45,541 bases of DNA, from NCBI GenBank assembly GCA_017853435.1, contig JAFMJN010000002.1, forward strand, positions 1 to 45,541, given 5' to 3'. Both the position numbers and the translations under genes were made by a program. The stretch is from Planctomycetota bacterium (lineage in GTDB: Bacteria > Planctomycetota > GCA-002687715 > CAIWVZ01). The notes below the pieces were generated by a model. It ran no database searches. It saw nothing but the letters and a program-made list of their open reading frames with translations, and had not been told where the DNA came from. Below, piece after piece: positions 1 to 17,450 of this stretch (positions within the stretch are counted from its first letter, which is position 1; every line of letters starts with the position of its first letter).

Positions 1-19
1 CCCGCGGTCCGGAATCCCC

Positions 20-1584: not shown

Positions 1585-1621
1585 GCGTCTTCGCTTCGGT
1601 TCGCGTGGTAGAGTTCCGCCG

Positions 1622-2671
1622 ATGGCGTCGGAACGTCCGGCGCCGCAACAGGTTGAGGAAGATTCCGGCATGTCCGTGACCGCACCGAGTTCAGCTCCCG
1701 GGTCATCCGTGGACGCGCCCCTTCCGCGGGGATCCTCCGGCATGGGCGAGGTCCGCGATCGTCGACTCGGCGTGACCGCGGTGATGACTTCCTTCAACAA
1801 GAAGGAGTTCGTTCGTCGCAACCTCGACGCGATCTTCGCGCAGACCGTGAAGTTCGACGCCGTCGTGGTCGTGGACAACGCGTCGACCGACGGGACCATC
1901 GACATGATCGCCGCGGACTATCCCGACGTGACGCTCGTGGTGATGCCGCACTCCGGTTACGGCGCGTGTGAGACCTTCAATCTCGGTTTCTCCACCGCGC
2001 GCACCGAACTCGTCGCGATTCTCGACGACGACGTGGAACTGCCTCCCGACTGGGTGGATCGGATGACGGCGCGCCTCGCGGCGGAGCCCGTGACGACGGC
2101 CATGGTGTCGTCGCACGTGTGGGAGCCGGGTACCCCCGATTGGTACATGACCCATCCGGAAGTTCTTCGAGAGCGTTACATGGCGACGTTCCGTGGATGC
2201 GCCACGCTCGCCCGCCGCGACGTGCTCGAAAAATGCGGCTGGTACGATCCGGACTTCTTCATCTACGGCAACGAACGCGATCTTTCGGCGCGCGTGCTGA
2301 ACCTCGGATGCAGGATTCTGCAGTTTCCGTCGGTCGTCGTGAAGCACGGCACGCCGTTCGGGATGAAACACGGCAAGCGCAGCCTCTACTACCACGTGCG
2401 TAATCTGTGGTGGTACCTCTTCAAGCACGTTCCGTGGGGGCAGGTGTTCGCCTTCCTCTTCGGTTTCCTGTGGCGTTCGGTGTTCGGTCGCAAGAAGGCG
2501 GCCGTGACGGACGCCGTGGGCACGATCGGCTTCTTTTCGACGGTGCGCGAGACCCCGGGTGGATGGTGGATCGTCGTGAAGGCCACCTTCGACGCCTTCA
2601 TGGGGCTCCCGAAGTGTCTCCGCAAGCGCGCCCCGTGTCGCGCCCCCGATTTCAGTCTCCCGTTGGGGTAA
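1622..2671 (+). CDS. Glycosyltransferase family 2, membrane-associated
   Basis: 349-aa ORF. 'VTAVMTSFNKKEFVRRNLDAIFAQT..VVVVDNASTDGT' plus DxD 'ILDDDVELP'. Hydrophobic C-terminal segments ('WWYLFKHVPWGQVFAFLFGFLW'). The first ~40 codons are low complexity, so the true start may be ATG 1670 or ATG 1742. Confidence 0.8.
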   Translation: MASERPAPQQVEEDSGMSVTAPSSAPGSSVDAPLPRGSSGMGEVRDRRLGVTAVMTSFNKKEFVRRNLDAIFAQTVKFDAVVVVDNASTDGTIDMIAADYPDVTLVVMPHSGYGACETFNLGFSTARTELVAILDDDVELPPDWVDRMTARLAAEPVTTAMVSSHVWEPGTPDWYMTHPEVLRERYMATFRGCATLARRDVLEKCGWYDPDFFIYGNERDLSARVLNLGCRILQFPSVVVKHGTPFGMKHGKRSLYYHVRNLWWYLFKHVPWGQVFAFLFGFLWRSVFGRKKAAVTDAVGTIGFFSTVRETPGGWWIVVKATFDAFMGLPKCLRKRAPCRAPDFSLPLG

Positions 2672-2673
2672 CC

Positions 2674-3744
2674 ATGACCGACGGGCCGTCCATGCACGGT
2701 GCGCGCGACGTCACGGTCGTGGTGACCACCCACAACGCGCGGGCGACGCTTCCCGCGACCGCGGCCTGCATTCGGAATCTTCGCGGAGTCGCCAAGGTCG
2801 TCGTCGTCGACAGCGGGTCCGCGGACGGGACACCTGAACTCGCGGCTTCGCTGTTTCCGGGCGCGCGGATCGAAGCGCTCGCGTCGAACGTCGGCCCGTG
2901 CGTCACTCGCAACATCGGACTCGCCGCGGCCGAAACCGCGCGCGTGCTTTTCGTCGACGACGACATGGGGTTCGAACCCGACATCGTCGAACGACTTTCG
3001 GCCGAACTCGACGCGCATCCCGACTGCGTCGCCGCCGGGCCGACGATCGTCTTCGACGACCGACCCGATGCGATCCAGTATGCGGGTGGCAGGATGCATT
3101 TCGGCGGACTTCCGCATCTCTACAGCCTCGGGGAGAAACCCGATCCGGCCGCGAAATCGCGTCGCGTCGACGTCTTGACCGCCGGGTGCCTTCTCGTCTC
3201 GCGCACGGCGGCCCTCGATGTCGGCGGATTCGACGAGCGCTTCTTCTACCTCGCCGAAGACGTCGATTTCGCGCTTCGTCTTCGCCACCGAGGCCATCAA
3301 CTTCTTCTCGTCGCGGGAGTGGTCGTTCGCAACGTCGGTGGTTCCGCCGCTCTGTCCTTGAAGGACGCCGAATATCCCGCGCGCCGTGTCGAACTGCACA
3401 GCCGCAATCGTTGGATGCTCATCGGTCGCGACTTCGATCGTTGGACCATCTTCGCGCTACTTCCCGCACTTCTCCTCTACGAGGCGGCGTGGGCGGCGTT
3501 CGCGACGATCACCGGGCATCTCGTGCCGTATCTTCGCGGCAAGGCGCGCGCGGTCGGTGCCCTGCGTGAAAAATCGGTTCTCCGCAGGCGCCGAAAAGTC
3601 GTCTCGGATCGGAAACTCATCGGGGCTCCGAAGATGACTTTTACGCGGACGGCGTTGGCGCAGGGTGGTGCGGACGCCGGTGCCGTCGCGCTCGACGGGT
3701 CGCTGCGTCTCATGTGGACGTGCCTCCGAGGACTCGTGCAGTGA
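2674..3744 (+). CDS. Glycosyltransferase family 2
   Basis: The track ORF 2407..3744 is trimmed to ATG 2674, 2 nt after the upstream stop. 'VTVVVTTHNARATL...VVVVDSGSADGT' and DxD 'LFVDDDMGFEPD'. C-terminal TM-like 'WTIFALLPALLLYEAAWAAFATI'. Confidence 0.8.
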   Translation: MTDGPSMHGARDVTVVVTTHNARATLPATAACIRNLRGVAKVVVVDSGSADGTPELAASLFPGARIEALASNVGPCVTRNIGLAAAETARVLFVDDDMGFEPDIVERLSAELDAHPDCVAAGPTIVFDDRPDAIQYAGGRMHFGGLPHLYSLGEKPDPAAKSRRVDVLTAGCLLVSRTAALDVGGFDERFFYLAEDVDFALRLRHRGHQLLLVAGVVVRNVGGSAALSLKDAEYPARRVELHSRNRWMLIGRDFDRWTIFALLPALLLYEAAWAAFATITGHLVPYLRGKARAVGALREKSVLRRRRKVVSDRKLIGAPKMTFTRTALAQGGADAGAVALDGSLRLMWTCLRGLVQ

Positions 3745-4658
3745 CGCTCCACGACGTTCACGTCGTCGTGCTGAACTGGAACGGCTACGGAGAGACGGAA
3801 GCGTGCGTCGCGGGGGTGATGGACGTCGCTCCCGACGTACGAATCCACATCGTCGACAACGGTTCGGAAGGCGACGAGGCGGGGCGACTCGCGCGTCGAT
3901 TCCCGGACGCGCGGATCGAATCCGTCGGTTTCAACGCGGGATTCGCCGGGGGCGTGAACCGCGGTATCGACGCGGCCCTCGCCGAGGGCGCGCGATTCGT
4001 GTTCCTTTTGAACAACGACGCGCGGATCGATGCGGGAACGCTTCCCGCGCTCCTCGACGCCGCCCGTCGCAGGCCGGATGTCGGCGTGTTCGGTCCGAGA
4101 ATTTGGCGCGATCGCGGGGCGGGAGTCTTGTGGTGTTGCGGCGTCGCCTTCGGGTTCGGTCCGAATCTCGGACGTCTGCGGGGTTTCGATCGTCGCGGCG
4201 ACGGTCTGTTCCTCGAGGAAGATGCCCCGGATTCGTTGACGGGCTGCGGCCTTCTCGTGCGGCGTGAGGTCTTCGATCGGATCGGCACCCTCGACGAAGC
4301 CTATTTCGTCTATCTCGAAGATGCGGACTTTTGTCTGCGCGCGCGCGAGGCCGGTTTCGGACTGCTCTACGTTCCGGGGGCGTCGATGGAACACCCGGGT
4401 GGTTGGTCGACAGGTGGGGGATACTCGCCGGGACGCAAGTACCTCACCGCGCACGGAGCCGTCCGCTTTTTGAAGCGTCACGGCACGTGGTCTCTGTGGG
4501 CGTCGTGGGTCGTCTTCGACGTGGTGCTTTGGCCCCTGTTGTTTCTTTCCGCGGGCGTCAGGGGGCGCGGGCGGGCGGCGTGGGCCAAGGCCCGCGGGAC
4601 GCTCGACGGACTTCTCGGTCGCCCTCCGAAGCCCCCCGCGTTAAAACCGCGGGCATGA
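3741..4658 (+). CDS. Glycosyltransferase family 2 (rhamnosyltransferase-like subgroup)
   Basis: The track ORF 3714..4658 probably starts at GTG 3741 (GTGA overlap with the upstream stop). 'VHVVVLNWNGYGET...IVDNGSEGDE', 'NAGFAGGVNRGI' and 'LLNNDARID'. Hydrophobic C-terminus 'WASWVVFDVVLWPLLFLSAG'. Confidence 0.8.
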   Translation: MTLHDVHVVVLNWNGYGETEACVAGVMDVAPDVRIHIVDNGSEGDEAGRLARRFPDARIESVGFNAGFAGGVNRGIDAALAEGARFVFLLNNDARIDAGTLPALLDAARRRPDVGVFGPRIWRDRGAGVLWCCGVAFGFGPNLGRLRGFDRRGDGLFLEEDAPDSLTGCGLLVRREVFDRIGTLDEAYFVYLEDADFCLRAREAGFGLLYVPGASMEHPGGWSTGGGYSPGRKYLTAHGAVRFLKRHGTWSLWASWVVFDVVLWPLLFLSAGVRGRGRAAWAKARGTLDGLLGRPPKPPALKPRA

Positions 4659-5998
4659 GGATCCTTCAGGTCGCCCACCAGTTGCCGCCCCGTTTCACGG
4701 CGGGCACCGAGGTGTACACCCTGCGACTGGCGAAGGCGCTCACCCGGCTTGGACACGACGTCCACCTGGTTTCCGGCGACGATTCCGGTGCGACACGTCC
4801 CGGAGCCCTTCGCGAGGGGACGATCGACGGCCTCCCACACACCTTCGTCGGGGTGGACCGCATCGCTTCGACCGCCGAGGAAACGCTTTTTCCGCCGGCG
4901 ACGCGGGGTGCGTTGAAGCCGCTCGTCGCCTCCTTCTCTCCCGACGTGATCCACGTGCAGCATCTGCGCCATCTCGGTCTCCACGTGTTCGACGGGGCTC
5001 CGCCCGTCCGTCGCGTCATGACGTTGCACGACCATTGGCTCGCGTGCGCGCGCGACGGGCAGCTTCTCGATGCCGCGGGGCAACCGTGTCCCGGGGCGAC
5101 CCCCGAACGGTGCCGTTCCTGTCTCGAGGGCTTTCGCTTCGGACTTGGACGCGGGGAGGCCGCCGTGGCGCGCATGCTGTCGCGCCTCGGAGTCCGTCCC
5201 GGATCCCCGGCGGCGCGCGGACTACGGTCGGGGGCGCTCGCGTTGCGTCGACTTCGGTCCACCGAATCCGGCAGGCCCTACGATCTCGAGGCGCGTCGCC
5301 GTGCGGTGTCGGACCTCGCCGCCGTGACCGATCGCTTCATCGCACCCTCGCGGCACGTCGCCGACGCCCTGACGGCGTTCGGGTTGCCCCCGGGCAAGAT
5401 GGTGGTGATTCCGCACGGGGTCGATGCCGACGTCGCCTTCCGTCCCGTTCCCGCGCCCGAGGGCGCTCCGCTGCGGATCGGTTACATGGGCACCGTCGCG
5501 CCGCCGAAGGGGCTCCATGTCCTCGTGGAGGCGTTTGCCCGTCTCGGTCGCGGGGTCGCGACGTTGCGCGTCCACGGACGCACGGATCTGCGCCCCGAGT
5601 ACGTCGCGTCGGTGGTCGGGGGAGGACTTCCCGCCGGAGTCACCATCGAAGGGGCCTTTCGCCCCGAGGAAGCCCCGCGTCGCCTCGCCGAAATCGACGT
5701 CCTCGTCGTCCCGTCGATTTGGCCGGAGAACCATCCGCTGACCATCGCCGAGGCCCTCGCCCATAGGGTCCCGGTCGTGGCGTCCGCGCTGGGCGGGATT
5801 CCCGAAATCGTGAAAGACGGCGTCAACGGTCGATTGGTGCCTCCGGGAGATCCCGAGGCCTTGGCCGAGGTTCTCCGGCGGTTGGCCCGCGACCGCGTCG
5901 AATTGGCGCGCCTCCGAGCGGGAATCACCCCCCCGGAATCGTTCTTGAGCCATGCCGCATCGGTAGTTGTGGCGTACGATACTCGCGAGGTTTCCTGA
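4655..5998 (+). CDS. Glycosyltransferase family 4 (GT-B, retaining type), Cys4-insert paralog 1
   Basis: The track ORF 4331..5998 is trimmed to ATG 4655 (ATGA overlap). 'MRILQVAHQLPPRFTAGTEVYTLRLAKAL', EX7E motif 'ENHPLTIAE', 'GGIPEIVKDGVNGRLVPPGD'. Carries 'TLHDHWLAC-x13-C-x7-CRSC'. Confidence 0.85.
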   Translation: MRILQVAHQLPPRFTAGTEVYTLRLAKALTRLGHDVHLVSGDDSGATRPGALREGTIDGLPHTFVGVDRIASTAEETLFPPATRGALKPLVASFSPDVIHVQHLRHLGLHVFDGAPPVRRVMTLHDHWLACARDGQLLDAAGQPCPGATPERCRSCLEGFRFGLGRGEAAVARMLSRLGVRPGSPAARGLRSGALALRRLRSTESGRPYDLEARRRAVSDLAAVTDRFIAPSRHVADALTAFGLPPGKMVVIPHGVDADVAFRPVPAPEGAPLRIGYMGTVAPPKGLHVLVEAFARLGRGVATLRVHGRTDLRPEYVASVVGGGLPAGVTIEGAFRPEEAPRRLAEIDVLVVPSIWPENHPLTIAEALAHRVPVVASALGGIPEIVKDGVNGRLVPPGDPEALAEVLRRLARDRVELARLRAGITPPESFLSHAASVVVAYDTREVS

Positions 5999-5999
5999 C

Positions 6000-7379
6000 A
6001 TGTCCGACGCGAGTCTCTACGACGCATCCCGCTACACGCCCGAGCAGATCGCGGCCTACAAGGCGGACAACGAGCGTCGCGTCCGAGAGGCCGCGAGCAA
6101 CGGCGACGCGTTCGTCGACGGTTTGCCCCTCAAAGTCACGCTCGAACTCACGGCGGACTGCAACCTCTATTGCCGCATGTGCGAGTTCCCGGTGCCGCGC
6201 GAACAAGGGCGTGGTCGGTACGACCTCCATATGCCCGTCGAGACCTTCCGGATGCTCGCGCCGCAAGTGTTTCCGCACGCGCGCATCGTGAACTTGACCG
6301 TGGTGGGGGAACCGTTGATGGTGCCCTATCTCGACGAGGTTCTCGAAGAGTGCGCCAAGTGGCAGACGCGCCTCGAACTCATCTCCAACGTCGTGCTGCT
6401 CGACGCTCCGATGTTGGCCAAAGTCGGTCCCCACCTCGGATGTCTGATCGTGTCCTTCGACGGCGGCACGCGCCGCACCTTCAACCGCATCCGCGTCGGC
6501 TCCGACTTCGAACAGGTTACGAGGAACATGTTGCGCTACGCGCGTTGGCGCGAATCGCTTCCGCCCGAACGTCGACCGGGGTTCCACCTCGCGGTGACCC
6601 TGATGAAGGAGAACGCGCACGAGTTGCCGACGATCATCAGGATCGCGAAGGCGCTCGGCGTCGATCTCGTTTCGGGCGCGTGGATGATCGCGTTCAACGA
6701 CAAGTTGGCCAATTCGTCGCTCTTGCGCCATCGTGCGCTCGCGAATCGCGCCTTGCGTGAAGCGCGCCGTGTCGCCGATGAGCTCGGCGTCCGCACCGCG
6801 TTGCCGGTCGATTTTCCGGACGTTTCGGACGAAGAGATCGCGGCGGTGTCCTTCGTGGAACCGTCGTTGCCGGACGGCCCACTTCCGCACCTCGCCGCGG
6901 CGTTGGCCGGAGGCCCCGTCGACGAAGCCCCCGTTGCCCTCGCGGAGGGCGACGTGCTCATCCCGCTTTCGGAGGTGGGCGGTCTCGGAGTCGACGAGCC
7001 CATCAAGGTGGCGGGGGATCCGGACGATCGCCGGGCACGATCGATGGCGTTCGCCGTCGCGCCCGCCGAACCGCCGCCTCCTTCCCTCGGACCGGACGGC
7101 AAGCCGCGCAACACGTGCAAGTTCCTCTGGAACGAATTGTTCGTGAACGTCTCCGGCGACGTCGCCCCGTGTTGCATCCAAGGGCGTCCCGTCGTCGGCA
7201 ACACTCACGCGACGAATCTTTCGGAGATTTGGAACAACGCGCCCATGCGCGAGATGCGCCAGAGGCTCCTCGACGGGGATCCGATTCCCTGTTGCAAGGA
7301 TTGCAACTACAACACGCAGCTCGGGCAGGGGAACTATCGGGAAGACACGTACTTCATCGATCTCGATCGCCGACTATGA
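6000..7379 (+). CDS. Radical SAM enzyme with C-terminal SPASM/twitch-like Cys cluster
   Basis: The track ORF 5967..7379 probably starts at ATG 6000, 1 nt after the upstream stop. CX3CX2C 'CNLYCRMC' at nt 6159-6182. 'VVGEPLM' SAM-binding-like motif. C-terminal 'CKFLWNELFVNVSGDVAPCC...PCCKDC' (nt 7116-7304) fits CX13GX4C plus CX2C. A ~100-aa Pro/Ala/Gly/Asp-rich insert (nt ~6810-7110) separates the two parts. Confidence 0.8.
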   Translation: MSDASLYDASRYTPEQIAAYKADNERRVREAASNGDAFVDGLPLKVTLELTADCNLYCRMCEFPVPREQGRGRYDLHMPVETFRMLAPQVFPHARIVNLTVVGEPLMVPYLDEVLEECAKWQTRLELISNVVLLDAPMLAKVGPHLGCLIVSFDGGTRRTFNRIRVGSDFEQVTRNMLRYARWRESLPPERRPGFHLAVTLMKENAHELPTIIRIAKALGVDLVSGAWMIAFNDKLANSSLLRHRALANRALREARRVADELGVRTALPVDFPDVSDEEIAAVSFVEPSLPDGPLPHLAAALAGGPVDEAPVALAEGDVLIPLSEVGGLGVDEPIKVAGDPDDRRARSMAFAVAPAEPPPPSLGPDGKPRNTCKFLWNELFVNVSGDVAPCCIQGRPVVGNTHATNLSEIWNNAPMREMRQRLLDGDPIPCCKDCNYNTQLGQGNYREDTYFIDLDRRL

Positions 7380-7404
7380 CGGTGCGGGGAGCGAGATGCG
7401 GTAA

Positions 7405-10400
7405 GTGAGAGCGGGAGAAGGGGTGGGGGCGAAGGGGAAGCGGAAGATCCTGCATGTCGTACACGGCTTTCCTCCGGAATGCCGTGGCGGGACGGAATCC
7501 GTGGTCGCTCGGGTCGCCGAGGCCCAAGCCGCGCGCGGGCACGCCGTCACGGTGCTCTTCGGGACGATGCAGGTCGGAGAGGCGACGACCCTCGAACGCG
7601 TGGACGGTCCGATAGCGGGAGTGACCCACCTGCGTCTACGAAAGTCCGGGCTCTTCGTCGATCAATGGGATCGATCGGACGACTCCGAAGCGCTCGATTT
7701 GATCGCACGGTCGGAAGCCGCCGACGCCGACGTCGTGCACGTCCATCAGTGGATTCGCCTGACGCGTCATTTGGTGCGCTGGGCGCGCTCGCTCGGAAAA
7801 ACCGTGTGCGTCACCCTTCACGACGCCACGGTGTCGTGTCCCATCGCGTTCCGCGTGCGCGAGGACGGACTCTGCCGCAAGGATCCTGGATCCTCGTCGT
7901 GTTTCGGTTGCGCGCCGACTCCGTTCGGGATGGACGAAACGACGTGTCGCGACGCGCTCGACGTCTTCGTCGCCGATATGCGCGCGGAAGTCGCCGCCGC
8001 GGATGCCGTCGTCGTCCCGACCCGCGCCCATGCGGCGTTTCTGGCTCCGTGGTTGCCCGCGGAAGTGCGGCCGATCGTGGTGGCGCACCCGTCGCTCGAG
8101 TCGGCGCCTCGCCGCGTGCATTCGTCGACCGTACCCGCCGACAGCCCCATCCGCGTCTTGCATTTCGGTCATCTGAACGACGTCAAGGGGGTTCCACTGC
8201 TCTACGAAGCGATGGGCCTCCTCGCGCCGTCGGTTCGTTCCGCGTTGCGCCTCGACGTTTACGGGACGGCGGCGGATCCACGGATGCGTGCGCGGCTCGA
8301 CGCTCTCAAGAGCGGATTGCCGATCTACGAGCACGGACCGTATGTGCCTTCCGAACTTGACGGCGATCGTCACGACGTCGTCGTGATCCCGTCTCGAGCT
8401 TCCGAATCGTGGAGCTTCGTCCTCGACGAAGCGTTCGCGATGAGCCTGCCCGCGATCGTCCCGGCGTGCGGGGCTCTCGAGGAACGCATCGGCGCCGCCG
8501 GCTTCGTTTATCCCCCCGATTCCGTCGAGGGGCTCGCGTCGATTCTCGAAATGCTCGTGCGTGACCGTTCGCAACTCGATCGCGCGCGCGCATCGATTCC
8601 CGGCGACCGCGGTGTCGAGACCCACGTCGATGCTCTCGACGTCGTCTACGGAGACGCGCGTCCCAAGGCGCCGATCGCCGAGCCGGGGCTTTGGGCGGGA
8701 CTCGAGCGACGCTCCCGCGCCGCGTTGCGACGTGCCTCGATGTCGATCGTCGAAGCACGAGGTCGCGTGGACGCGGAGATCGTCCGTTACGACGATTTGT
8801 TCGCGAATTTCAAAGCCGCGGAAGCGGGTGTCTCCGAAGCCCGTTCCGAAATCTCGCGCCTCGGTACGGTGCTCGACGGATTCAGGGAATCCGTCCGTCA
8901 GTACGCCGCGCGCTGCACGGAACTCGAAAAGTGGGTCGCGAGTCTGCGCGAAGGGACGGAAGACGGGGGGCGCTCCGTCGATCGGCTTCTCGAACTCGAA
9001 CGCACGTTGAATGGCGTGGAAGCCGCACTCGCGGATCGCGAGGGGGAACTCCGGATCGCGGAACGGCGTCTCGAATTCGAGACCGCGCGGGCAACCGAGT
9101 CCTCCGTCCGCGCGGAGGCCGAATCTCGCCGTGCCGAGACCGAAGTCTTCGCCCGCCATGACGTCGAAAGGACGCTCCACGCCGCCCTCGCGTCGACGGC
9201 GGATCTCGCCCGACGTTTGGTCCGTGTGGAGGCGGATGCGAGACTCGCGTCCGATGCCCTGCGCGTGGAGCGTGCGGCGCGTCGCGACGTCGGCGAACTC
9301 GTCGGCCACCTCGAAGGGGACCTCCGAGCGCTGCGTTCGGTGATCGCGAAACAGGAACGCGAAGTCGTCGAGCGCGCCGCGGACATCGAACTTCTCACGA
9401 CGTCGCAGCGCGCGTTGTCGGCGCGGCTCGAATCACTCGCTCGTGAGGCGATCGCGAAGGACGCGGATCTCGCTCGCGCTTTCCATCGCGAATCCGAATT
9501 GAAGGACGTTTTGGCGTTCTCGGAACGCCGACGGCGCGACGTTTCGGACGTTGTCGCGGCGGAGAGAGCGACGGCATCGAGTCTCCAGGCGCGCGTATCC
9601 GCCGACGCCGCACGCATCCGACACCTCGAGTCGGTCGTCCGAGAAACGAAGGCCGAGGCCGATGCGGCGCGCGCTCTGTACGACGGGCTGCGGGCCGAAA
9701 CGAACCACGAACGGGAACGCGTGATTCGTTCGGAAGAGATCCTCGGCGCCGCTTTCGATGGTGAACGTCTCGATCCGGAATCGGCGTCCGCCTGGGCGCG
9801 CAAACACGCCGAAGCGGTTGCGGAACTCGACGCCCTTCGACGCGCGATCGTCGAGGACCGGGGGGCGTCCGCGGCGCTGAAGGCCCGTGTTTCGACCACG
9901 TCGCGGCGTCCGAAGGTGTTGTTCGTCGTTCACGATTTTCTGCCGTATCACGCAGCGGGTTCGGAGATCTACACCTATCAGCTCGCGAAGGCGCTGTCGA
10001 AGCACGTCGACGTCCATTTGGCCTTCTGCGAAAATCGTCCCGAACGGCCGCAGTACGAGACGCGCGAAGGAACGTTCGACGGCCTCCCGTTCACGGAAGT
10101 CGTGCATCACGATGCGTTCCCGACGTTCGGCGCCACCTACGAAGATCCGGAAATGGATCGCGTCTTCGACGGGATTCTTCGCCGCGTACGCCCCGACGTC
10201 GTGCACGTGCAGCATCTCAAGTTCTGGGGGCTCGGTGTCCTCGGTCGAGCGCGGAAGGCGGGGTGCCGCGTCTTCTATACCCTTCACGAGTACATGGCGA
10301 TCTGTCCGCGAGACGGCCAGATGCGAAGGCCGGACGGCGAACGGTGCGAACTTCCCGTTCCGTCGACCTGCGCCGATTGCATCACGCACGTGGCGTTGTC

Positions 10401-11286
10401 GCGAAGTTCCGCGGGGCGTCTCGCAGGTTCGGTGTTGCGTCGCGCCGTCGAGGCGGCGCCCGACGCCTTGAAGGAGGTCGGTAATCGGGTCGCCCGTCGA
10501 TGGGCGATTCGTGGAGCGTCGCCCGGGTCGCATTCCGAGCGCGAAGCGGCGATTCGCAACCGTCTTTCGACCACGCAGGAGGCGTTTCGCGCGGTGGACA
10601 TGTTCTTCGCGCCGAGTCGGTTTCTTCGCGAACGATTCCTCGCCTCCGGCATCGTGCCGTCCGATCGGATCGTTTGGTCTCCCTACGGACAAGACGTCGA
10701 GCGGTTCCCGAAACATCCCAAAACCCCTTCGGAACGACTTCGCGTCGGCTACCTCGGCACCATTTCCTCCTACAAGGGGCTCGGCGTACTCATCGAGGCG
10801 CTCGAAGCGTTGTCCGCCTATCCCGTCGAAGGGCGCATTCACGGGGCCCTCGAAATTTTCCCCGACTACACGGCTCATTTGCGTGCGACGATCCGCAACC
10901 CGCGCATCGCTCTTCTCGGAAGGTTCGACAACCGCGACGTCGCGCGACTGCTCGCCGACATCGACGTGCTCGTCGTCCCGAGTCTGTGGTGGGAGAATGC
11001 TCCCTTGACCATCCACGAAGCCTTTCTTTCGAAGACGCCCGTGGTCACCTCGGACATCGGGGGCATGAAGGAATTGGTTCAGCATGGGGTGAACGGACTG
11101 CACTTCAAAGCGGGAGACGCTGCGGATCTCGCTTCGGTCCTTCGAAGCTTGGCGCTCGATCGCGCCTCGCTGCGGACCCTGGAGCCCGATCCGTCGATCG
11201 TGCGTGATATCCGTGAAGATGCACTTTCGATGCTCGCTCGGTACTCGGCCGCGGTGTCCGCATCGTCCGAGAGAGCCTTCGCATGA
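7405..11286 (+). CDS. Giant bifunctional glycosyltransferase: GT4 module - ~400-aa coiled coil - GT4 module
   Basis: Uninterrupted 1293-aa ORF (GTG 7405; GTG 7423 is an alternative start). The N-terminal module has 'KILHVVHGFPPECRGGTES' and EX7E 'ESWSFVLDE'. The C-terminal module has 'PKVLFVVHDFLPYHAAGSEIYTYQLAKAL', EX7E 'ENAPLTIHE' and 'GGMKELVQHGVNGLHFKAGD'. The central part (nt ~8700-9900) is A/R/E/L/D-rich, heptad-like, and holds a single proline. Confidence 0.85.
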   Translation: MRAGEGVGAKGKRKILHVVHGFPPECRGGTESVVARVAEAQAARGHAVTVLFGTMQVGEATTLERVDGPIAGVTHLRLRKSGLFVDQWDRSDDSEALDLIARSEAADADVVHVHQWIRLTRHLVRWARSLGKTVCVTLHDATVSCPIAFRVREDGLCRKDPGSSSCFGCAPTPFGMDETTCRDALDVFVADMRAEVAAADAVVVPTRAHAAFLAPWLPAEVRPIVVAHPSLESAPRRVHSSTVPADSPIRVLHFGHLNDVKGVPLLYEAMGLLAPSVRSALRLDVYGTAADPRMRARLDALKSGLPIYEHGPYVPSELDGDRHDVVVIPSRASESWSFVLDEAFAMSLPAIVPACGALEERIGAAGFVYPPDSVEGLASILEMLVRDRSQLDRARASIPGDRGVETHVDALDVVYGDARPKAPIAEPGLWAGLERRSRAALRRASMSIVEARGRVDAEIVRYDDLFANFKAAEAGVSEARSEISRLGTVLDGFRESVRQYAARCTELEKWVASLREGTEDGGRSVDRLLELERTLNGVEAALADREGELRIAERRLEFETARATESSVRAEAESRRAETEVFARHDVERTLHAALASTADLARRLVRVEADARLASDALRVERAARRDVGELVGHLEGDLRALRSVIAKQEREVVERAADIELLTTSQRALSARLESLAREAIAKDADLARAFHRESELKDVLAFSERRRRDVSDVVAAERATASSLQARVSADAARIRHLESVVRETKAEADAARALYDGLRAETNHERERVIRSEEILGAAFDGERLDPESASAWARKHAEAVAELDALRRAIVEDRGASAALKARVSTTSRRPKVLFVVHDFLPYHAAGSEIYTYQLAKALSKHVDVHLAFCENRPERPQYETREGTFDGLPFTEVVHHDAFPTFGATYEDPEMDRVFDGILRRVRPDVVHVQHLKFWGLGVLGRARKAGCRVFYTLHEYMAICPRDGQMRRPDGERCELPVPSTCADCITHVALSRSSAGRLAGSVLRRAVEAAPDALKEVGNRVARRWAIRGASPGSHSEREAAIRNRLSTTQEAFRAVDMFFAPSRFLRERFLASGIVPSDRIVWSPYGQDVERFPKHPKTPSERLRVGYLGTISSYKGLGVLIEALEALSAYPVEGRIHGALEIFPDYTAHLRATIRNPRIALLGRFDNRDVARLLADIDVLVVPSLWWENAPLTIHEAFLSKTPVVTSDIGGMKELVQHGVNGLHFKAGDAADLASVLRSLALDRASLRTLEPDPSIVRDIREDALSMLARYSAAVSASSERAFA

Positions 11287-13544
11287 AGGTTCTCATGCTG
11301 ACGATGGGATTGCCGCCCGCCTCTCGCGGTGGGACGGAAGTTCACGTCATGGGGCTCGCTCGGGCTCTGCGTCGACGCGGAGATCGGGTGGTGTTGGCCT
11401 GTCGCGAATCGGCGGAAGGACGGACGCCTTTCTCGGTCCGTCGGGAAGCGCTCGACGGTTTCGATGTGTATCGGATGGCCTACGACTTCCATGACGCGAC
11501 GTCGTATCGCGCCATTCATGAACATCCTTCGATCGACGCCGCTCTCGAGGGGGTGGTGGATGCCGTCGCGCCCGACGTCGTCCATATCCATCACTTCAGT
11601 TGCCTGTCGACGTCGTTCCTCGATCGACTCCATGCGCGCCGTATCCCGACGGTCGTGACGCTGCACGATCACTGGCTCCCGTGTCCGCGGGGACAGCGAA
11701 TCACCCCCGAACTCGAAATTTGTGAAACTCTCGATCGAAACCGCTGCGCCACTTGTCTCGGCGCCTTGTGGCCGCATTTCGACGTCGGGCCCAAGGTGCT
11801 CGAAGAGGCCGACACGCGTCTGTTGCGGCGTTTGAATCGTGTCGATCTCCTTATCGCACCTTCCGAGTTTCACGCGCGACGCATGATCGAATGGGGACTC
11901 GACCCCGCGTTGGTGCGCGTCGTCGTGCACGGACTCGAATCGGACGGCTACGAAGCCGTCAGGCGACGCCGGTCGGGCGTTCGCGTCGTCGGCTTTCTGG
12001 GCAGCGTCATTCCGTCGAAGGGGGTTCACGTCCTGATCGAGGCGTGGAAGCGCCTCGGGCGAACCGACATCGAACTCGTCGTTCACGGCGAAGCACCGAC
12101 GTTCCACGGGCGAGACGGGTACGTCGACGGTCTCCGTGCCGCGTGCGACGGTCTTCGGGTGCGGTTCGCGGGAGCCTACGAACCGGCGGATGTCCCGCGC
12201 CTTCTGCGGGGTATCGACGTCCTCGTCGTGCCTCCCGTGTGGTGGGAGTCGTTCTGCCTCACGGCGCGCGAAGCGTTTCTTGCCGGCGTTCCGGTGGTCG
12301 CCTCCGGACACGGGGCGTTGCTCGAAGCCTTCGAGGACGGGAACGGCGGACGGTTCTTTCCCCCCGGCGATGTGGAGGCGTTGGCGGCGACACTCGCGGA
12401 TCTCATCGACCACCCCGAGCGTCACGAGGCTCTCGCGGCTTCCGTTCCCGCCGTACGAAGCATCGCGGAGTGCGCCGACGAGACCTCGCGTCTTTACGCG
12501 TCCGTCGCGGCGGCGCGTCGTCATCGAGAGGCGCTCGATGGAAGCGACGCGCTTGGACTGCTCGGCCCCGACGCGACCGCGACGCCGTACTGCACGGTGT
12601 TCATTCCGACGTGGAACGGGTTGCCCGAACTATCGGGAGTCTTGGCGAAACTCGTCGTCCAGCGCACGCCGTTCCCGTTCGAGATCCTCGTGATCGATTC
12701 CGGTTCGACCGACGGAACTCTCGAACTTCTGGCCGAATATCCGTCGATTCGCGTGATCCGCATCCCGAATTCCGAGTTCAATCACGGTACGACGCGCAAT
12801 CGCGGCGTCGCCGAGGCACGCGGTGAGATCGTCGCCTTGTTGACGCAGGATGCGGAGCCCGTCGACGATCGATGGCTCGCCCGTCTCGTCGGGAACTTTT
12901 CCGATCCCCGAGTCGCGGGGGTCTATTGCTCGCAGCGACCGCGTCCCGACTGCGACCCTTTCGCGCGGGATCGGTTGAAGGACTGGACCGCGGAGTCCGG
13001 GCCACCCGTCGTGCAGGGGCCGGTGACGCCCGAAGCGTTCGAAAGCATGACGCCGTGGGAGCGGTATCTGGTGTCGCGCTTCGACGACGTCGCGAGTTGC
13101 GTGAGGAAATCGGCCATGGTCGAGGTTCCTTACGCGCGTCGTCAGTTCGGAGAAGACGTCGAGTGGGGGAAACGTGCCGTCCTCGCCGGATGGAAGATCG
13201 TGAACGACCCCGGCTCCGTGGTGATTCACTCGCACACGTCTCCGGTGCTCTACGAATTCAAGCGCGTTTATCTCGACCATCAAAATCTTCACGAGCTCTT
13301 CGGTCTGCACACGTTGCCGCGCTGGACCGACGTTCCTTTGTGTGCGGTGCGTTACTTCCTTCATCTGCTCCCCGTCGTTTGGCGCGACGACCGGGACGTC
13401 GCCTTCAAACTTTGGTGGACGTTGAAATTGCCGCTGTACGCGTTCACCCAAAATCTCGCGCAATGGCTCGGCGCGAAGTCCGTCGCGTGGAAGCGCGACG
13501 GTCGGCATCGTTGGGTGGACGCCTTGCTTCGGAAATCGGTGTGA
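11283..13544 (+). CDS. Bifunctional glycosyltransferase: N-terminal GT4 fused to C-terminal GT2
   Basis: 753-aa ORF with an ATGA overlap to the upstream gene. GT4 part: 'MKVLMLTMGLPPASRGGTEVHVMGLARAL', EX7E 'ESFCLTARE'. GT2 part from nt ~12585: 'YCTVFIPTWNGLPEL...ILVIDSGSTDGT', 'FNHGTTRNRG', 'LLTQDAEP'. Confidence 0.85.
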   Translation: MKVLMLTMGLPPASRGGTEVHVMGLARALRRRGDRVVLACRESAEGRTPFSVRREALDGFDVYRMAYDFHDATSYRAIHEHPSIDAALEGVVDAVAPDVVHIHHFSCLSTSFLDRLHARRIPTVVTLHDHWLPCPRGQRITPELEICETLDRNRCATCLGALWPHFDVGPKVLEEADTRLLRRLNRVDLLIAPSEFHARRMIEWGLDPALVRVVVHGLESDGYEAVRRRRSGVRVVGFLGSVIPSKGVHVLIEAWKRLGRTDIELVVHGEAPTFHGRDGYVDGLRAACDGLRVRFAGAYEPADVPRLLRGIDVLVVPPVWWESFCLTAREAFLAGVPVVASGHGALLEAFEDGNGGRFFPPGDVEALAATLADLIDHPERHEALAASVPAVRSIAECADETSRLYASVAAARRHREALDGSDALGLLGPDATATPYCTVFIPTWNGLPELSGVLAKLVVQRTPFPFEILVIDSGSTDGTLELLAEYPSIRVIRIPNSEFNHGTTRNRGVAEARGEIVALLTQDAEPVDDRWLARLVGNFSDPRVAGVYCSQRPRPDCDPFARDRLKDWTAESGPPVVQGPVTPEAFESMTPWERYLVSRFDDVASCVRKSAMVEVPYARRQFGEDVEWGKRAVLAGWKIVNDPGSVVIHSHTSPVLYEFKRVYLDHQNLHELFGLHTLPRWTDVPLCAVRYFLHLLPVVWRDDRDVAFKLWWTLKLPLYAFTQNLAQWLGAKSVAWKRDGRHRWVDALLRKSV

Positions 13545-14821
13545 GGCCGCGCGCCCTTTTTGTCGGACACGTCCCGCCCGACGCCCGTGGCGGTGGGGTC
13601 GGCAATCACATGGGCGAAGCGGCCCGCGCGGTTTCGGATCTTTTCGAGATCTCATGGTTCACGCGCGGGTCCGATGGTTCGGGTGATGATCTCGCGGTTT
13701 CGGAGGAGACCTTGTTCGAGGGTGGTCGCGCTTTCGTGTTTGCCCATCGCGGCGTGCGGGGGACGTCGTTTCGAGAACGGACGCGATTCGAGCCCGCGGA
13801 GGCGGCGTTCGATCGCGTGCTCCGCTCCGTCCGTCCCGATGTCGTTCATATTCATCATTGGTCGTGGCTGTCGTCCGGCATGGCCGCGGCGGCCCGCGCC
13901 TTCGGGGCCCGCGTCGTCCTTACGCTGCACGACCATGTCGCGACGTGCCCGCGGGGGAGGCGCTATCGACCGGACGACGTCGTTTGCGAGACGGTCGTGC
14001 CCGAGACGTGTGCGGCGTGCGTCGTTCCGCGGTGGATCGAAGCGGTGCGGAATCCCGATTCGAAGGCGCGCGCGATCGTCCGCGCCTTGTTCGGTCGAAG
14101 CGAAGATCTTCGCCTTCTCGCGGAGCGCGAACGTCGGATCTTGGACATGTTGGCGTCGGCCGATGCGATCGTTTTTCCGTCGGAGGACGCGCGTCGACGT
14201 TGTGCCGAGCGGTTCGGATCCCTTTCCGATCGGATGCGGGTGATTCCCCCCGTTTGGAAGCGCCCCCTTTCGGCTCCGCCTCGGCGTCCCGACGGAGCGG
14301 TGTTTCGCGTCGGACTTCTCGGCGATCCCGCCTTCGCGAAGGGGATCGTTCCCGCGGCACGCGCGATCGCTGGATGCGAGCGTCCGACGTCGCTGGACGT
14401 TTGGGGAGAGCCGAGCGCGCACGTCGCGGGGGTGCTCTCCGCCGCCGCGCCGGGCCACGTTCGGTGGCGGGGTCGCTACACCCCCGATACGCTCGGCGAC
14501 GTCATGGCGACGCTCGACGCGGTCGTGGTTCCGTCGCTTTGGCCCGAGACCTTCGGCATCGTCGCGCGTGAAGCGGCCGCCTACGGGCGTCCGGTGATCG
14601 TGAGCGCGATCGGGGGACTCGCCGACGCCGTGGTGCGTGGCGTGGCCGTCGGCGTCCCCCCCGGCGATGTCCATGCGCTGCGTGCGGCGATCGACGCGCT
14701 TCCTTCGGGTTCCGATCCGATCGCCGTCCCGTCCGGGGTCGATGCGGAATGGTGCGAAGGTCGCGACGGGCTTCGGGCTCTCTACGCGGACCTCGTCGTC
14801 GGTGGTAAGACGGGGGCATGA
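13541..14821 (+). CDS. Glycosyltransferase family 4, Cys4-insert paralog 5
   Basis: The track ORF 12872..14821 is trimmed to GTG 13541 (GTGA overlap). 'RALFVGHVPPDARGGGVGNHMGEAARAV', 'VVHIHHWSW', 'TLHDHVATC-x12-C-x7-CAAC', EX7E 'ETFGIVARE'. Confidence 0.8.
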   Translation: MRPRALFVGHVPPDARGGGVGNHMGEAARAVSDLFEISWFTRGSDGSGDDLAVSEETLFEGGRAFVFAHRGVRGTSFRERTRFEPAEAAFDRVLRSVRPDVVHIHHWSWLSSGMAAAARAFGARVVLTLHDHVATCPRGRRYRPDDVVCETVVPETCAACVVPRWIEAVRNPDSKARAIVRALFGRSEDLRLLAERERRILDMLASADAIVFPSEDARRRCAERFGSLSDRMRVIPPVWKRPLSAPPRRPDGAVFRVGLLGDPAFAKGIVPAARAIAGCERPTSLDVWGEPSAHVAGVLSAAAPGHVRWRGRYTPDTLGDVMATLDAVVVPSLWPETFGIVAREAAAYGRPVIVSAIGGLADAVVRGVAVGVPPGDVHALRAAIDALPSGSDPIAVPSGVDAEWCEGRDGLRALYADLVVGGKTGA

Positions 14822-16917
14822 TCTCCCGCTTCCTGTGCGTGCTTGCGTTGCTCGTCGCCGCGACGTCCGGGCAGGGAAGGGTCATCCTGATCGGGGTCGA
14901 CGGTCTCGATCCCGAATTCACGACGCGCTGGACCGACGACGGCACGCTTCCCGAACTCGCCGCGCTCCGGCGCAATGGAGGACTCGCGCCGCTTCTTCCC
15001 ACCAATCCCGCTCAGTCGCCGGTTTCGTGGGCGTCGCTCATCACGGGCCGCAATCCCGGTGAAACGGGCATCTTCGACTTTCTCGCGCGTCGCGCCAAGA
15101 ACGGGGAGATCACGGCGGAACTCGCCTTGGTCGATCGCGTACGACTTCCGCTGAGGGCGTGGGTCGTCGGCGTGCTGATGGTGGTCATTCTCGCGTTGTC
15201 CGGGTTCGTGGCGTACCGCAGGCTTCGAGCGGGAGCCGTCCTTCGAAGGGCGCCCTTCGTCGGCACGTTGCTCGGGGCCGCGTGTTTCGTCGGGGCGCTC
15301 GGAGCGTGGTTGCCCGCGTGGGTCGAGGTGCCCCGGAACGCGCGCGGCGGCGAGACACTGTTCGAGCGTCTCGACCGTGCGGGCATCGGAACGGTCAACG
15401 TGTTCGCTCCGATGTCGTTCCCCGCGCCCGATCTCAAGAACGGCTGCGTGCTCTGCGGACTCGGCGTCCCGGACGTGATGGGAACTCCGGGCACGGCGGT
15501 GGTCTACCGCGAAGAGCCGATCGCGGGGGGCGTGAGGATCACTCCGACGGGATGTCGGGAAGTGCAGATGACGGAGGTCGGCGGCGTTCTCGCCGGACCG
15601 AAGGTCGAAGGACCGCGTCGCCCCGACGGATCGCGGCCGCAAGTCCCTCTGAAAGTGATTCCCGCGCGTGGACGCAACGCGCTGATCTTCGAACTCGACT
15701 CCGGACTGTCGATCGAAGTGGCGAAGGGCGGCTGGACTCCGTGGATGGATGTCCCGATTCCTCTCGGGCCGCTCGGAGTGTTGTCGTCGTTGGCGCGCTT
15801 CCGTGTCCTTGAGGCGGGCGCCCGCACGATCATCTATCAGGAACCGTCGTGCTTCGATCCTCGGCGACCGTCTCCGGTCGCGCCCATCGTTTCGCCGAAG
15901 TCGTTCGGATCCGAGTTGGCGACCGACGGCCGTCCGTTCGGCACTCTCGGTTGGGCGTGTGCGACGAATCCGCTCCAGGACGAGATCATCGACGAGGAGA
16001 CCTTCCTCACGCAGACGCTCGATATCGATCGGGAGCGCGAGGAACTCGTGATGCGAGCCTTGGGTCGCAGCGGTTGGAAGATGTTTTTCTGCGTGTTGTC
16101 GACGCCGGATCGCGTCCAGCACCTTTTCATGCGCGATCACGACCCCGCGCATCCTCGTCACGATCCGACGGCGATCGCTCGACGCGGAGATCCGATCAAG
16201 GAGTCGTATCGCCGTATCGACGCCCTCGTCGGTCGCATCCGTCGCGAAGTCGCTTCGCGCGACGACTTGATCGTCGTTTTCTCCGATCACGGCATCGCCC
16301 CGTTCCGCCATCAAGTCAATCTCAATCGTTGGCTCGCCGAAGAGGGTTATCTCGTCGGATCCGAAGCGGGTTCCGAACGCACCATCGAAACGTCGATCGG
16401 CGGCTCCGCGTTGTTCCCCGGAATCGACTGGACGCGCACGCGTGCGTATTCGATGGGGCTCGGGAAGATCTGGCTCAATCTGCAAGGTCGCGAGCCTCGC
16501 GGCTCGGTCGATCCCGCGAAGCGTCGCGCCTTGCTCGAAGAAATTCGCACGAAGCTCCTCGCACTCGAGCATGACGGAAAGCGGATCGTGCGGTCGGTCG
16601 GCGTCCGCGAAGACCTCTATTCCGGAGATCGCGTCGAGGAGTCCGCGGATCTCGTCGTCGGATTCGAGCGCGGCTATCGGATTTCGTGGCAGGCGACGCT
16701 CGGCTCGCTCGACGAGCCCGTGATCATTCCCAATCGTCGACTTTGGTCGGGTGACCATTGCTCGGTGGACCCCGCTTTGGTGCCGGGAGTCTTCGTCGCA
16801 TCGCGTCCTTTCGCCGAAAACGAGGTCGGCGTCCTCGATCTCTTCCCGACGGTCGAAGCATGGTTCCGACTTCCCCGTACGATCGGGCTCTCGGGGCGGG
16901 TGCTCGCGTGGAAGTGA
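14818..16917 (+). CDS. Alkaline-phosphatase-superfamily enzyme (type I phosphodiesterase/nucleotide pyrophosphatase-like), membrane tethered
   Basis: 699-aa ORF with an ATGA overlap. Signal-like N-terminus 'MISRFLCVLALLVAATSGQG'. Metal-ligand and nucleophile-type motifs: 'LIGVDGLDPE', 'NPAQSPVSWASLITG', 'VFSDHGIAPF', 'WSGDHCSVD'. Two hydrophobic helices are inserted at nt ~15150-15325. Confidence 0.75.
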   Translation: MISRFLCVLALLVAATSGQGRVILIGVDGLDPEFTTRWTDDGTLPELAALRRNGGLAPLLPTNPAQSPVSWASLITGRNPGETGIFDFLARRAKNGEITAELALVDRVRLPLRAWVVGVLMVVILALSGFVAYRRLRAGAVLRRAPFVGTLLGAACFVGALGAWLPAWVEVPRNARGGETLFERLDRAGIGTVNVFAPMSFPAPDLKNGCVLCGLGVPDVMGTPGTAVVYREEPIAGGVRITPTGCREVQMTEVGGVLAGPKVEGPRRPDGSRPQVPLKVIPARGRNALIFELDSGLSIEVAKGGWTPWMDVPIPLGPLGVLSSLARFRVLEAGARTIIYQEPSCFDPRRPSPVAPIVSPKSFGSELATDGRPFGTLGWACATNPLQDEIIDEETFLTQTLDIDREREELVMRALGRSGWKMFFCVLSTPDRVQHLFMRDHDPAHPRHDPTAIARRGDPIKESYRRIDALVGRIRREVASRDDLIVVFSDHGIAPFRHQVNLNRWLAEEGYLVGSEAGSERTIETSIGGSALFPGIDWTRTRAYSMGLGKIWLNLQGREPRGSVDPAKRRALLEEIRTKLLALEHDGKRIVRSVGVREDLYSGDRVEESADLVVGFERGYRISWQATLGSLDEPVIIPNRRLWSGDHCSVDPALVPGVFVASRPFAENEVGVLDLFPTVEAWFRLPRTIGLSGRVLAWK

Positions 16918-17450
16918 CGTCGCGCGCCGAACCCTTGCGCCGGGTCGTCCACGTCGCGGTGGGCCTTCCCGCGTTCTTCCTCGATCGAAGCACGGTCACG
17001 TTCTTCATCGGCGCCTGCGTCGCGGGGGCCGTGTTCAACGCCGTGGTGCTTCGCCTCGTGCCGATCTTCCGCGAGGTCCGTGACGTGCCGCGCGGGTCGG
17101 CCGGAACCGTGCTCTATCCCGCGACACTCGCGGTGCTGCTCGTTCTCTTTCGCGACCGTCCGGAACTCGTGAAGGTCGGATGGATCATGTTGGCCTTCGG
17201 TGACGGCTTGGTTCCGTTGTTCGCGAGGCTCGGGGGTCCACGTTGGCCGACGGTTGAAGGTAAGCGTGTGATCCCTTCCGTTTTCGCCGCCGCGTGTGCC
17301 GCCCTCGTCGCATGGCCCGCGACGGATTGGAAACTTGCCTTCGCGGGTGCCGCCGCGGCCGTCTTCGCCGACGCGATCCCGCGGGTGGACGACAACATCG
17401 CGTGGCCCGTTCTCGGCGTCCTCGGTGCGTGGGGGGGCTACGCCGCGTGA
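16914..17450 (+). CDS. Small polytopic membrane protein, polyprenol (dolichol/phytol) kinase / CTP-transferase-1-like
   Basis: The track ORF 16758..17450 is trimmed to GTG 16914 (GTGA overlap). About 6 hydrophobic helices. 'MLAFGDGLVPLFARLGG...VEGK' and 'ADAIPRVDDNIAWPVLG' resemble the GDxxAxxxG and DN..P motifs of the COG0170 dolichol/phytol kinase family. The match is degenerate, so the function call is tentative. Confidence 0.5.
   Translation: MTSRAEPLRRVVHVAVGLPAFFLDRSTVTFFIGACVAGAVFNAVVLRLVPIFREVRDVPRGSAGTVLYPATLAVLLVLFRDRPELVKVGWIMLAFGDGLVPLFARLGGPRWPTVEGKRVIPSVFAAACAALVAWPATDWKLAFAGAAAAVFADAIPRVDDNIAWPVLGVLGAWGGYAA

Follow-up and report, generated by a model that had tools for sequence, protein, structure and literature searches.

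Extended coiled coils on glycan-assembly enzymes have been described from O-antigen assembly dependent on ATP-binding cassette (ABC) transporters, for which such a coil has been called 'a characteristic marker' (PMC11231755). In the known rulers the terminating enzyme is always N-terminal and lies at the coil's distal end, while the polymerising glycosyltransferase (GT) modules are either fused C-terminally (WbbB, ORF6-O7) or recruited (WbdD-WbdA), and ruler orthologs are found both with and without C-terminal GT modules (PMC11231755). WbdD has 708 residues and is a trimer, with a coil-containing C-terminal region at residues 460-708 (249 residues; PMC3482155). Here we describe a GT4-coiled coil-GT4 protein of a Planctomycetota bacterium, encoded in a window (the whole stretch of DNA that was analysed) of 45,541 nucleotides with a G+C content of ~66% (assembly GCA_017853435.1, contig JAFMJN010000002.1, positions 1-45,541). 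A sequence-only reading of this window had proposed that the long spacer between the two GT4 modules is a built-in molecular ruler like those of WbdD and WbbB. Our analysis predicts a bifunctional retaining glycosyltransferase with a segmented coiled-coil stalk, for which the sequence signatures favour a parallel arrangement and for which, by analogy with the rulers above, a measuring function is plausible. A literature search found no description of a GT4-coil-GT4 protein from a planctomycete. The gene and its three parts are:

7405..11286, + strand: GT4-coiled coil-GT4 gene, 1293 codons from GTG 7405, with conserved full-length homologs.
7405..8679, + strand: N-type GT4 module, residues 1-425, predicted GT-B fold (Pfam, Foldseek, and AlphaFold2 (AF2) with a local confidence score (pLDDT) of ~85-95).
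8689..9897, + strand: predicted segmented coiled-coil stalk, residues 429-831 (heptad analysis, AF2 helices).
9913..11283, + strand: C-type GT4 module, residues 837-1293, predicted GT-B fold (Pfam, AF2 pLDDT ~85-97, Foldseek).

The open reading frame (ORF) at 7405-11286 on the + strand is single and uninterrupted, as had been stated, with 1293 codons and neither stop nor frameshift. The database copy of the protein (P0001; 1287 amino acids (aa), 100% identical) begins at GTG 7423, six codons after 7405, and this GTG is probably the true start, since P0001 starts there and GGAG precedes it at 7413-7416. No transmembrane-like hydrophobic segment was found in the protein by a Kyte-Doolittle window scan (an amphipathic helix was not looked for), and it is presumably soluble and cytoplasmic.

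The spacer covers residues ~426-836 (~410 aa) and consists of 19% A, 16% R, 13% E and 10% L. Its heptad a/d score reached z=8.7 against 200 shuffles, with the GT4 domains at z=1.7 and 1.9 and the spacers of 27 homologs at z=3.5-11.7; together with the canonical composition of the a, d, e and g positions this agrees with the heptad-like character that had been read from the sequence. The heptad register is unchanged for ~220 residues (615-836), shifts in the first third of the spacer and is weak at 552-614. No Pfam domain was found inside the spacer at E<=0.1, nor was there a folded domain in the AF2 models. These were two monomer models, of residues 1-860 and 400-1293, made with an 18-sequence alignment. 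The first has helices at residues 429-519, 525-582, 614-723, 731-785 and 791-830, the second at 430-519, 525-786 (unbroken, 262 residues) and 791-831, so the models differ on the internal breaks and agree on helicity. Both are helical across the spacer by DSSP, with a spacer pLDDT of 50-75; moderate pLDDT is usual in monomer models of oligomeric coils. Being of the monomer, both models are compatible with an extended coil as well as with a hairpin. Firm helix breaks are predicted at GTEDGG (520-524) and GERLDP (786-791), and softer zones at 583-613 and 724-730. Two positions stand out within the stalk:

9151..9243, + strand: weak-heptad, low-confidence zone, residues 583-613 (heptad trace, AF2, homolog indels).
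9754..9783, + strand: predicted helix break FDGERLDPES, with the only interior proline, P791.

The first of these zones interrupts the helix in one AF2 model, is helical with low pLDDT in the second, overlaps the indel-rich region of the homologs, and is a candidate joint or hinge. With regard to the second, the single proline that had been reported holds for the interior, where P791 is the sole one between residues 428 and 835, but four more are present at the spacer edges. With ~395-400 helical residues at 0.1485 nm per residue, the stalk would measure at most ~58-60 nm. The earlier estimate of a continuous helix of roughly 60 nm therefore stands as a maximum and as regards helicity, but not as regards continuity, as the modelled stalk is segmented, with breaks near 520-524 and 786-790. 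A disordered or globular centre, the outcome that the sequence-only reading had named as speaking against itself, was checked for, and heptads and modelled helices were found instead. On the heptad pattern and the two models, the spacer is a genuine coiled coil with canonical heptads, segmented by two to four breaks. Sequence searches with the whole protein and with the spacer alone against the PDB gave nothing beyond generic GT4 matches and weak coiled-coil matches (reovirus sigma-1 at 5.5e-5, tektin, occludin), and no informative structural relative of the spacer was found there.

Both ends of the stalk carry what appears to be a complete GT4 enzyme, with module limits placed by AF2 and alignments at residues ~14-420 and ~837-1293. 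Glyco_transf_4 and Glycos_transf_1 are each present twice and complete in Pfam, both far over the gathering score (PF13439 scored 92 bits against a cutoff of 28.5, PF00534 111 bits against 26.4 and PF13692 132 bits, with two stretches each). In Foldseek searches the N module best matched BshA, MshA and glycogen synthase (E about 1e-15), and the C module MshA, sucrose-phosphate synthase, GlgM and HepE (E about 1e-19). For both modules the GT-B fold was recovered, with PimA, PglA and GlgA also among the matches and a TM-score on the target of 0.7-0.78, and all matches of the AF2 models were GT4, with none of another kind. The two modules share 24% identity along their whole length (E=2e-7) and their cysteine motifs align, so they are paralogs, as had been claimed. 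The following motifs are invariant in 17 homologs:

7837..7911, + strand: Cys4 insert of the N module, CPIAFRVREDGLCRKDPGSSSCFGC (C145, C157, C166, C169).
8404..8430, + strand: EX7E motif of the N module, ESWSFVLDE (residues 334-342; E334, E342).
10303..10380, + strand: Cys4 insert of the C module, CPRDGQMRRPDGERCELPVPSTCADC (C967, C981, C989, C992).
10993..11019, + strand: EX7E motif of the C module, ENAPLTIHE (residues 1197-1205; E1197, E1205).

The presence of EX7E and a Cys4 insert in each module, also part of the earlier reading, is thus confirmed, and a possible loss of catalytic residues in one of them was checked in the same 17-homolog alignment, where EX7E and the phosphate-binding lysine of the GxxxxxKG motif (K261 in the N module, K1124 in the C module) are kept in both. 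By sequence and modelled fold the two modules group with CAZy GT4 (retaining GT-B glycosyltransferases), and neither appears degenerate. The Cys4 insert follows beta-5 of the N-terminal Rossmann domain, with the pattern C-P-R-x-G-Q...C...C-x2-C, and is probably a zinc ribbon or other metal-binding element. It was seen in 4/4 GT4 modules checked, namely the two described here, that of the upstream GT4 and that of the downstream GT4-GT2 protein (the GT4 at ~13547-14821 not being among them). We know of no characterised GT4 with such an insert.

A word-indexed search gave 17 full-length homologs of 1139-1398 aa, with identities of 86-32% across the 16 other homologs. In an exhaustive search of 1.84 billion representatives with residues 201-1293 as query, the long two-module architecture was represented by about 26 clusters at 50% identity, and the C-type relatives were mostly stand-alone proteins of 450-480 aa; the earlier remark that a spacer of this length between two GT4 domains is unusual is supported by these numbers. 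Among the 80 loci retained at one genome per species, 18 contain the fused gene, and 17 of these 18 are labelled as metagenome-assembled genomes (MAGs) of Planctomycetota, the closest being the uncultured planctomycete LaPlata_bin-2350 (85% identity). The ~400-aa coil is on this distribution an insertion specific to a planctomycete clade.

A survey of homologs for conservation of spacer length had been suggested, and the length is not conserved: in the fused homologs it ranges from 183 aa (L015) to 563 aa (L032), with a median of 416, and with conservation in the 17-homolog alignment limited to the first ~60 and last ~30 residues. Relatives without the long spacer, which had also been raised as a point to look for, do exist. 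One homolog (P0018, 897 aa) has the same two modules with a linker of only ~55 aa, and directly linked GT4-GT4 proteins of the same subfamily are also found in some loci (L039, L048, L056, L065). Split arrangements were seen in at least 10 loci, where the N-type GT4 has a C-terminal coil tail of 40-229 aa and the next gene, at -1 to +46 bp, encodes a single C-type GT4 or a WbdA-like double one. Some N-type GT4-coil proteins, with tails of 300-444 aa, lack a C-type gene downstream. Because the coil is kept whether the C-type GT4 is fused, adjacent or absent, it is, as far as gene architecture tells, an attribute of the N-type module, with the C-type module an optional passenger at its far end.

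Relatives of 1640-1760 aa (L011:7016-11941, L016:6635-11917 and P0019) carry a GH63/GDE-like glycoside hydrolase (MGH1-like_GH, GDE_C) before an N-type GT4 whose coil tail measures ~226 aa, and the coupled gene that comes next encodes a C-type GT4; hydrolase and transferase are thereby placed on one stalk. Paired paralogous GT4-coil-GT4 genes were seen within the same MAG in different neighbourhoods (L007+L022, L028+L032, L005+L019, L002+L036), the members of a pair differing in coil length (e.g. 425 vs 563 aa in SIAO01). The distant homolog P0013 is isolated among unrelated genes.

The orientation of the coil determines where the two modules would lie, and three signatures bear on it. Pooled over 27 spacers, a positions contain 34% L, 14% V and 9% I and d positions 37% L and 6% V, with e and g positions rich in R and E. 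Among 265 charged pairs of g with e'(i+5), 63% are of opposite charge, compared with ~50% in all other i+5 classes (the nominal z of ~4 is an upper bound, as the sequences are related). Finally, the length differences between homologs are local tandem duplications at single sites, located at 12%-70% of the spacer, with periods of mostly 21, 28, 42 and 56 aa, i.e. heptad multiples (11/22/33-aa repeats in two homologs), and no matching insertion elsewhere in the spacer was seen alongside them; an in-register parallel coil tolerates such one-sided duplications, while a fixed antiparallel one would not. Because of the a/d asymmetry of beta-branched residues and leucine, the g-e' charge complementarity and the one-sided duplications, we favour a parallel, in-register homo-oligomeric stalk. 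A parallel coil would place the N and C modules at opposite ends, up to ~55-60 nm apart, and to the extent that these signatures favour it, the earlier proposal that the two activities are held apart is supported. The 11/22/33-residue, hendecad-like tandem repeats, which are not multiples of 7, are those of the L009 and L022 spacers, and suggest a locally different supercoiling of the stalk in these two.

We propose that an end-acting N-type GT4 is kept by a parallel stalk at a distance of up to ~55-60 nm from the C-type GT4, which works with the coupled GT4-GT2 protein encoded downstream, and that coil length sets glycan size, a reading to which we assign a probability of about 0.4. The N-type GT4 would be located at one tip of the stalk and the C-type GT4 at the other, probably together with the coupled GT4-GT2 and other GTs of the cluster. 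If the analogy to WbbB, WbdD-WbdA and ORF6-O7 holds, elongation would take place at the C-terminal (base) end, and the growing glycan would reach the N-type module only once its length spans the stalk. A distinct alpha-linked sugar would then be added by the N module, capping or modifying the chain. Coil length would thereby set product size, and the coils of 183-563 aa in different lineages would give lineage-specific glycan lengths; this natural range is compatible with such a role, but is not diagnostic of it.

Several observations weigh against this proposal. Given the short linker of P0018 and the split forms with tails of 40-80 aa, the module pair does not need wide separation in order to work. 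Close homologs differ by indels that gather in the middle third of the spacer, and this, like the break at 583-613 in one of the AF2 models, would fit the tip of a hairpin too. The N module, a GT4 paralogous to its C-terminal counterpart, does not belong to a known terminator class (methyltransferase, kinase-methyltransferase, or the Kdo transferases of GT99/GT137). A Wzm/Wzt transporter, the partner by which the known ruler systems are defined and whose Wzt has a cap-binding module, was not found in the window or in the ±10 kb around any of the 18 fused genes. No ABC ATPase was found in these regions with a regular expression for Walker A and the signature motif, although one could lie further upstream, beyond the part of the cluster that was covered, and the genes called in L081, L082, L088 and L089 matched neither an ABC nor a Wzm family of Pfam. 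A search with the PIG-L protein of the window gave only contigs of 1-4 kb, short of the cluster's upstream end. Candidates for the ABC pattern were present in only four loci, all without the fused gene (L013, L040, L046, L059). Likewise, a polyprenyl-phosphate glycosyl-1-phosphate transferase, which is the usual initiating enzyme, a flippase and a carbohydrate-binding-module protein were not seen within ±10 kb of the 18 fused loci.

The first alternative is a side-by-side geometry, in which the coil folds back as an antiparallel hairpin similar to SMC or seryl-tRNA-synthetase arms, or forms an antiparallel homodimer, such that the N and C GT4 are adjacent and act as a two-activity polymerase, with an arm of ~30 nm for oligomerisation, scaffolding of the other cluster GTs or localisation, and not for measuring length. 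The direct fusion in P0018 and the coupled neighbours with short tails do suggest a close pair, and the concentration of indels in the middle third, the roughly similar arms (429-582 vs 614-785) left by the 583-613 break, and weak matches to SMC arms point the same way. However, the other AF2 model crosses this zone in its 262-residue helix, the charge and a/d patterns point to a parallel coil, the duplications have no compensating insertion in a partner arm, the SMC score is 19.8 against 567 bits, and N-type GT4-coil proteins exist without any C module. We consider the side-by-side geometry unlikely, while still worth carrying along. The second alternative keeps the parallel dimeric or trimeric stalk, but as a generic tether that only multimerises and loosely links two GTs, raising their local concentration, with a length that drifts and measures nothing. 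This would account for the three-fold variation in spacer length, the restriction of conservation to the two junctions, the frequent tandem duplications, the existence of spacer-less and split relatives, and the absence of a recognisable terminator chemistry or export checkpoint. It accords less well with a coil of at least ~180 aa in 18/18 fused loci and of ~400 aa kept down to 34% identity, with duplications that mostly keep the heptad phase and a window coil in one register over about 220 residues, and with the cost of 1.2 kb of coding sequence if for dimerisation alone, and all characterised long coils on glycan-assembly enzymes have proved to be rulers (PMC11231755). We consider a mere tether about as unlikely as the side-by-side geometry. 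Finally, a disordered low-complexity linker, or an annotation artefact joining two genes, would fit the modest spacer pLDDT and the A/R/E-rich composition, but is highly improbable in view of the heptad score, the canonical a/d/e/g composition, the DSSP helices of both models and a fused ORF without stop or frameshift that is conserved in >25 sequence clusters.

With regard to the genomic neighbourhood, the gene belongs to a cluster that is syntenic in five loci (the window, L081, L082, L088 and L089). Its genes and features in the window that are closest to the GT4-coil-GT4 gene are:

4331..5998, + strand: GT4 encoded upstream, likewise from the Cys4 subfamily (identity with the C module 34% in the L001 ortholog).
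5045-5122: Cys4 insert of the upstream GT4, residues 239-264.
5967..7379, + strand: radical SAM/SPASM gene, upstream of the GT4-coil-GT4 gene in the five syntenic loci.
11283..13544, + strand: GT4-GT2 fusion gene, GT4 with Cys4 insert, a partner in every syntenic locus.
11682-11756: Cys4 insert of the GT4-GT2 protein, residues 134-158.
~13547-14821, + strand: further GT4 (Pfam E=5e-19), ending in an ATGA overlap with the AlkP-like gene, counterpart of the extra GT4 in L081.

The gene order starts with PIG-L, GT4, GT2, PIG-L, GT2, GT2, GT2, GT4, radical SAM/SPASM and the GT4-coil-GT4 gene, and continues with GT4-GT2, sometimes an extra GT4, a 700-aa protein of the AlkP/Phosphodiest family with N-terminal transmembrane segments, a ~180-aa protein, DUF92 and a UbiA prenyltransferase. 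In the window the cluster spans 2-19086, from the left edge to about 19 kb, and includes at least 10 GT2/GT4 modules; one of the two PIG-L deacetylases lies upstream of the window and was seen in L081, L088 and L089. The ATG of the GT4-GT2 gene overlaps the TGA of the GT4-coil-GT4 gene (ATGA), and because of this start/stop overlap the sequence indicates that the two are translationally coupled. The NCBIfam scan gave no equivalog name, all matches being far below cutoff (best EpsE, 85 bits vs 400).

The radical SAM/SPASM gene is directly upstream in 4/5 syntenic loci, with a 513-aa gene of unknown function in between in L082, and its twitch-type product best matches metalloenzyme and cofactor maturases in NCBIfam, again far below cutoff. 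A role in maturing a formylglycine in the AlkP-like neighbour was considered and set aside; the only candidate motif found was S-T-P-D-R at residue 428. A minus-strand ORF at 13652-14674 is probably spurious, being Arg-rich and without family match, and the true gene there is the + strand GT4 at ~13547-14821. Elsewhere in the window, the isoleucyl-tRNA synthetase ORF (28835-32593, - strand) has 1252 aa from the first start codon with the catalytic domain from residue ~208, and is either an over-extended ORF call or has an unusual N-terminal extension.

Because of its set of PIG-L, AlkP-type (PF01663), DUF92 and UbiA genes, the cluster looks like a pathway for a glycolipid that is glycosylphosphatidylinositol (GPI)-like or isoprenoid-anchored; PF01663 includes the GPI ethanolamine-phosphate transferases, and the phytyl-phosphate kinase VTE6 belongs to DUF92. 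A further-reaching version of the ruler proposal is a Planctomycetota GT4-capped parallel ruler of ~30-80 nm for an isoprenoid or GPI-like lipid glycan, without the ABC-transporter/carbohydrate-binding-module checkpoint by which all known ruler systems are defined. Such a ruler would have evolved independently, be much longer and have its length tuned by heptad-preserving tandem duplications. We regard this full combination as distinctly doubtful.

If the stalk is a ruler, measurement by coiled coils would extend to a new phylum and to a new enzyme pairing with GT4 at both ends, with coils exceeding the entire coil-containing C-terminal region of WbdD, and to a pathway without a recognisable ABC-transporter checkpoint, and the mechanism would reach more widely than the O-antigen paradigm. 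Coils of 183-563 aa form a natural series that, together with the spacer-less and split relatives, is a ready test set for coil length versus glycan length. Should the coil serve oligomerisation alone, the protein would be an unusual but ordinary multidomain glycosyltransferase. The finding also points to a large, strictly conserved and uncharacterised planctomycete glycan or glycolipid cluster, and to a GT4 subfamily with a conserved Cys4 insert.

Of the systems with which the protein can be compared, SMC/Rad50 arms also have globular modules at both termini with several hundred heptad-repeat residues between them, but in the planctomycete protein there is no hinge or zinc-hook domain, the termini are complete enzymes and not halves of one ATPase, and the signatures favour a parallel register. 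An assignment as SMC-like arm protein was rejected, with 19.8 bits for TIGR02168 (cutoff 567), 17.0 for TIGR02169 (cutoff 729) and no folded domain in mid-coil. The multi-GT4 polymerases of the WbdA type have two (or three) GT4 modules per chain and make an alternating-linkage polymer, without a long spacer. ORF6 of K. pneumoniae O7 consists of a methyltransferase-kinase, a coil and GT2-GT2, and as in its orthologs, the N-type GT4-coil occurs with or without a C-terminal GT; the catalytic families are methyltransferase/kinase and GT2 there and GT4 and GT4 here, and the O7 locus has wzm and wzt.

The WbdD-WbdA pair (E. coli O9a, K. pneumoniae O3) is a trimeric coil ruler with a kinase-methyltransferase terminator that recruits a dual-GT4 polymerase. 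The planctomycete split forms resemble WbdD plus WbdA in having an N-type enzyme with a coil tail, then a separate C-type GT4 or double GT4, with the recruited enzyme again a GT4 and the coil C-terminal to the distal enzyme (PMC3482155, PMC11231755). They differ in that the catalytic part of WbdD is a methyltransferase-kinase and not a GT, and in that WbdD is ABC-transporter dependent, while no ABC transporter was seen within ±10 kb of the planctomycete fused gene. WbdD also has a membrane-binding amphipathic helix (PMC11231755), whereas the planctomycete protein showed no transmembrane-like segment in the Kyte-Doolittle scan, which did not cover amphipathic helices. At 418 aa, and up to 563 aa in relatives, the planctomycete coil is longer than the entire coil-containing C-terminal region of WbdD (249 residues; PMC3482155).

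Also close in architecture is WbbB (Klebsiella pneumoniae O12/Raoultella terrigena), from the Proteobacteria and not the Planctomycetota, with a beta-Kdo terminator GT, a coiled coil and two polymerising GT modules in one chain. The terminator of WbbB, which we take to be a GT99, is a Kdo transferase unrelated to its polymerases, while the planctomycete ends are paralogous GT4s sharing the Cys4 insert, and WbbB pairs with a Wzm/Wzt whose carbohydrate-binding module reads the cap, of which none was seen within ±10 kb of the planctomycete loci. Shared with WbbB are the single polypeptide with an N-terminal GT, a coil and C-terminal GT module(s) (PMC11231755), and a place in a glycan cluster with several GTs, as a soluble or peripheral enzyme of the cytoplasm (presumably so in the planctomycete). 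The kinship with WbdD and WbbB proposed by the sequence-only reading thus holds for the coil architecture and for the modular pattern of fused, separate or absent GTs, but not for the export system or the type of N module. Because there is no known terminator chemistry and no Wzm/Wzt nearby, we do not file the planctomycete protein as a member of that system, which includes WbdD, WbbB, ORF6-O7 and ORF7-O4, but it has the extended coil on a catalytic module and, in architecture, the distal enzyme N-terminal of the coil with GT modules fused or recruited C-terminally, and by analogy it may work like the known rulers.

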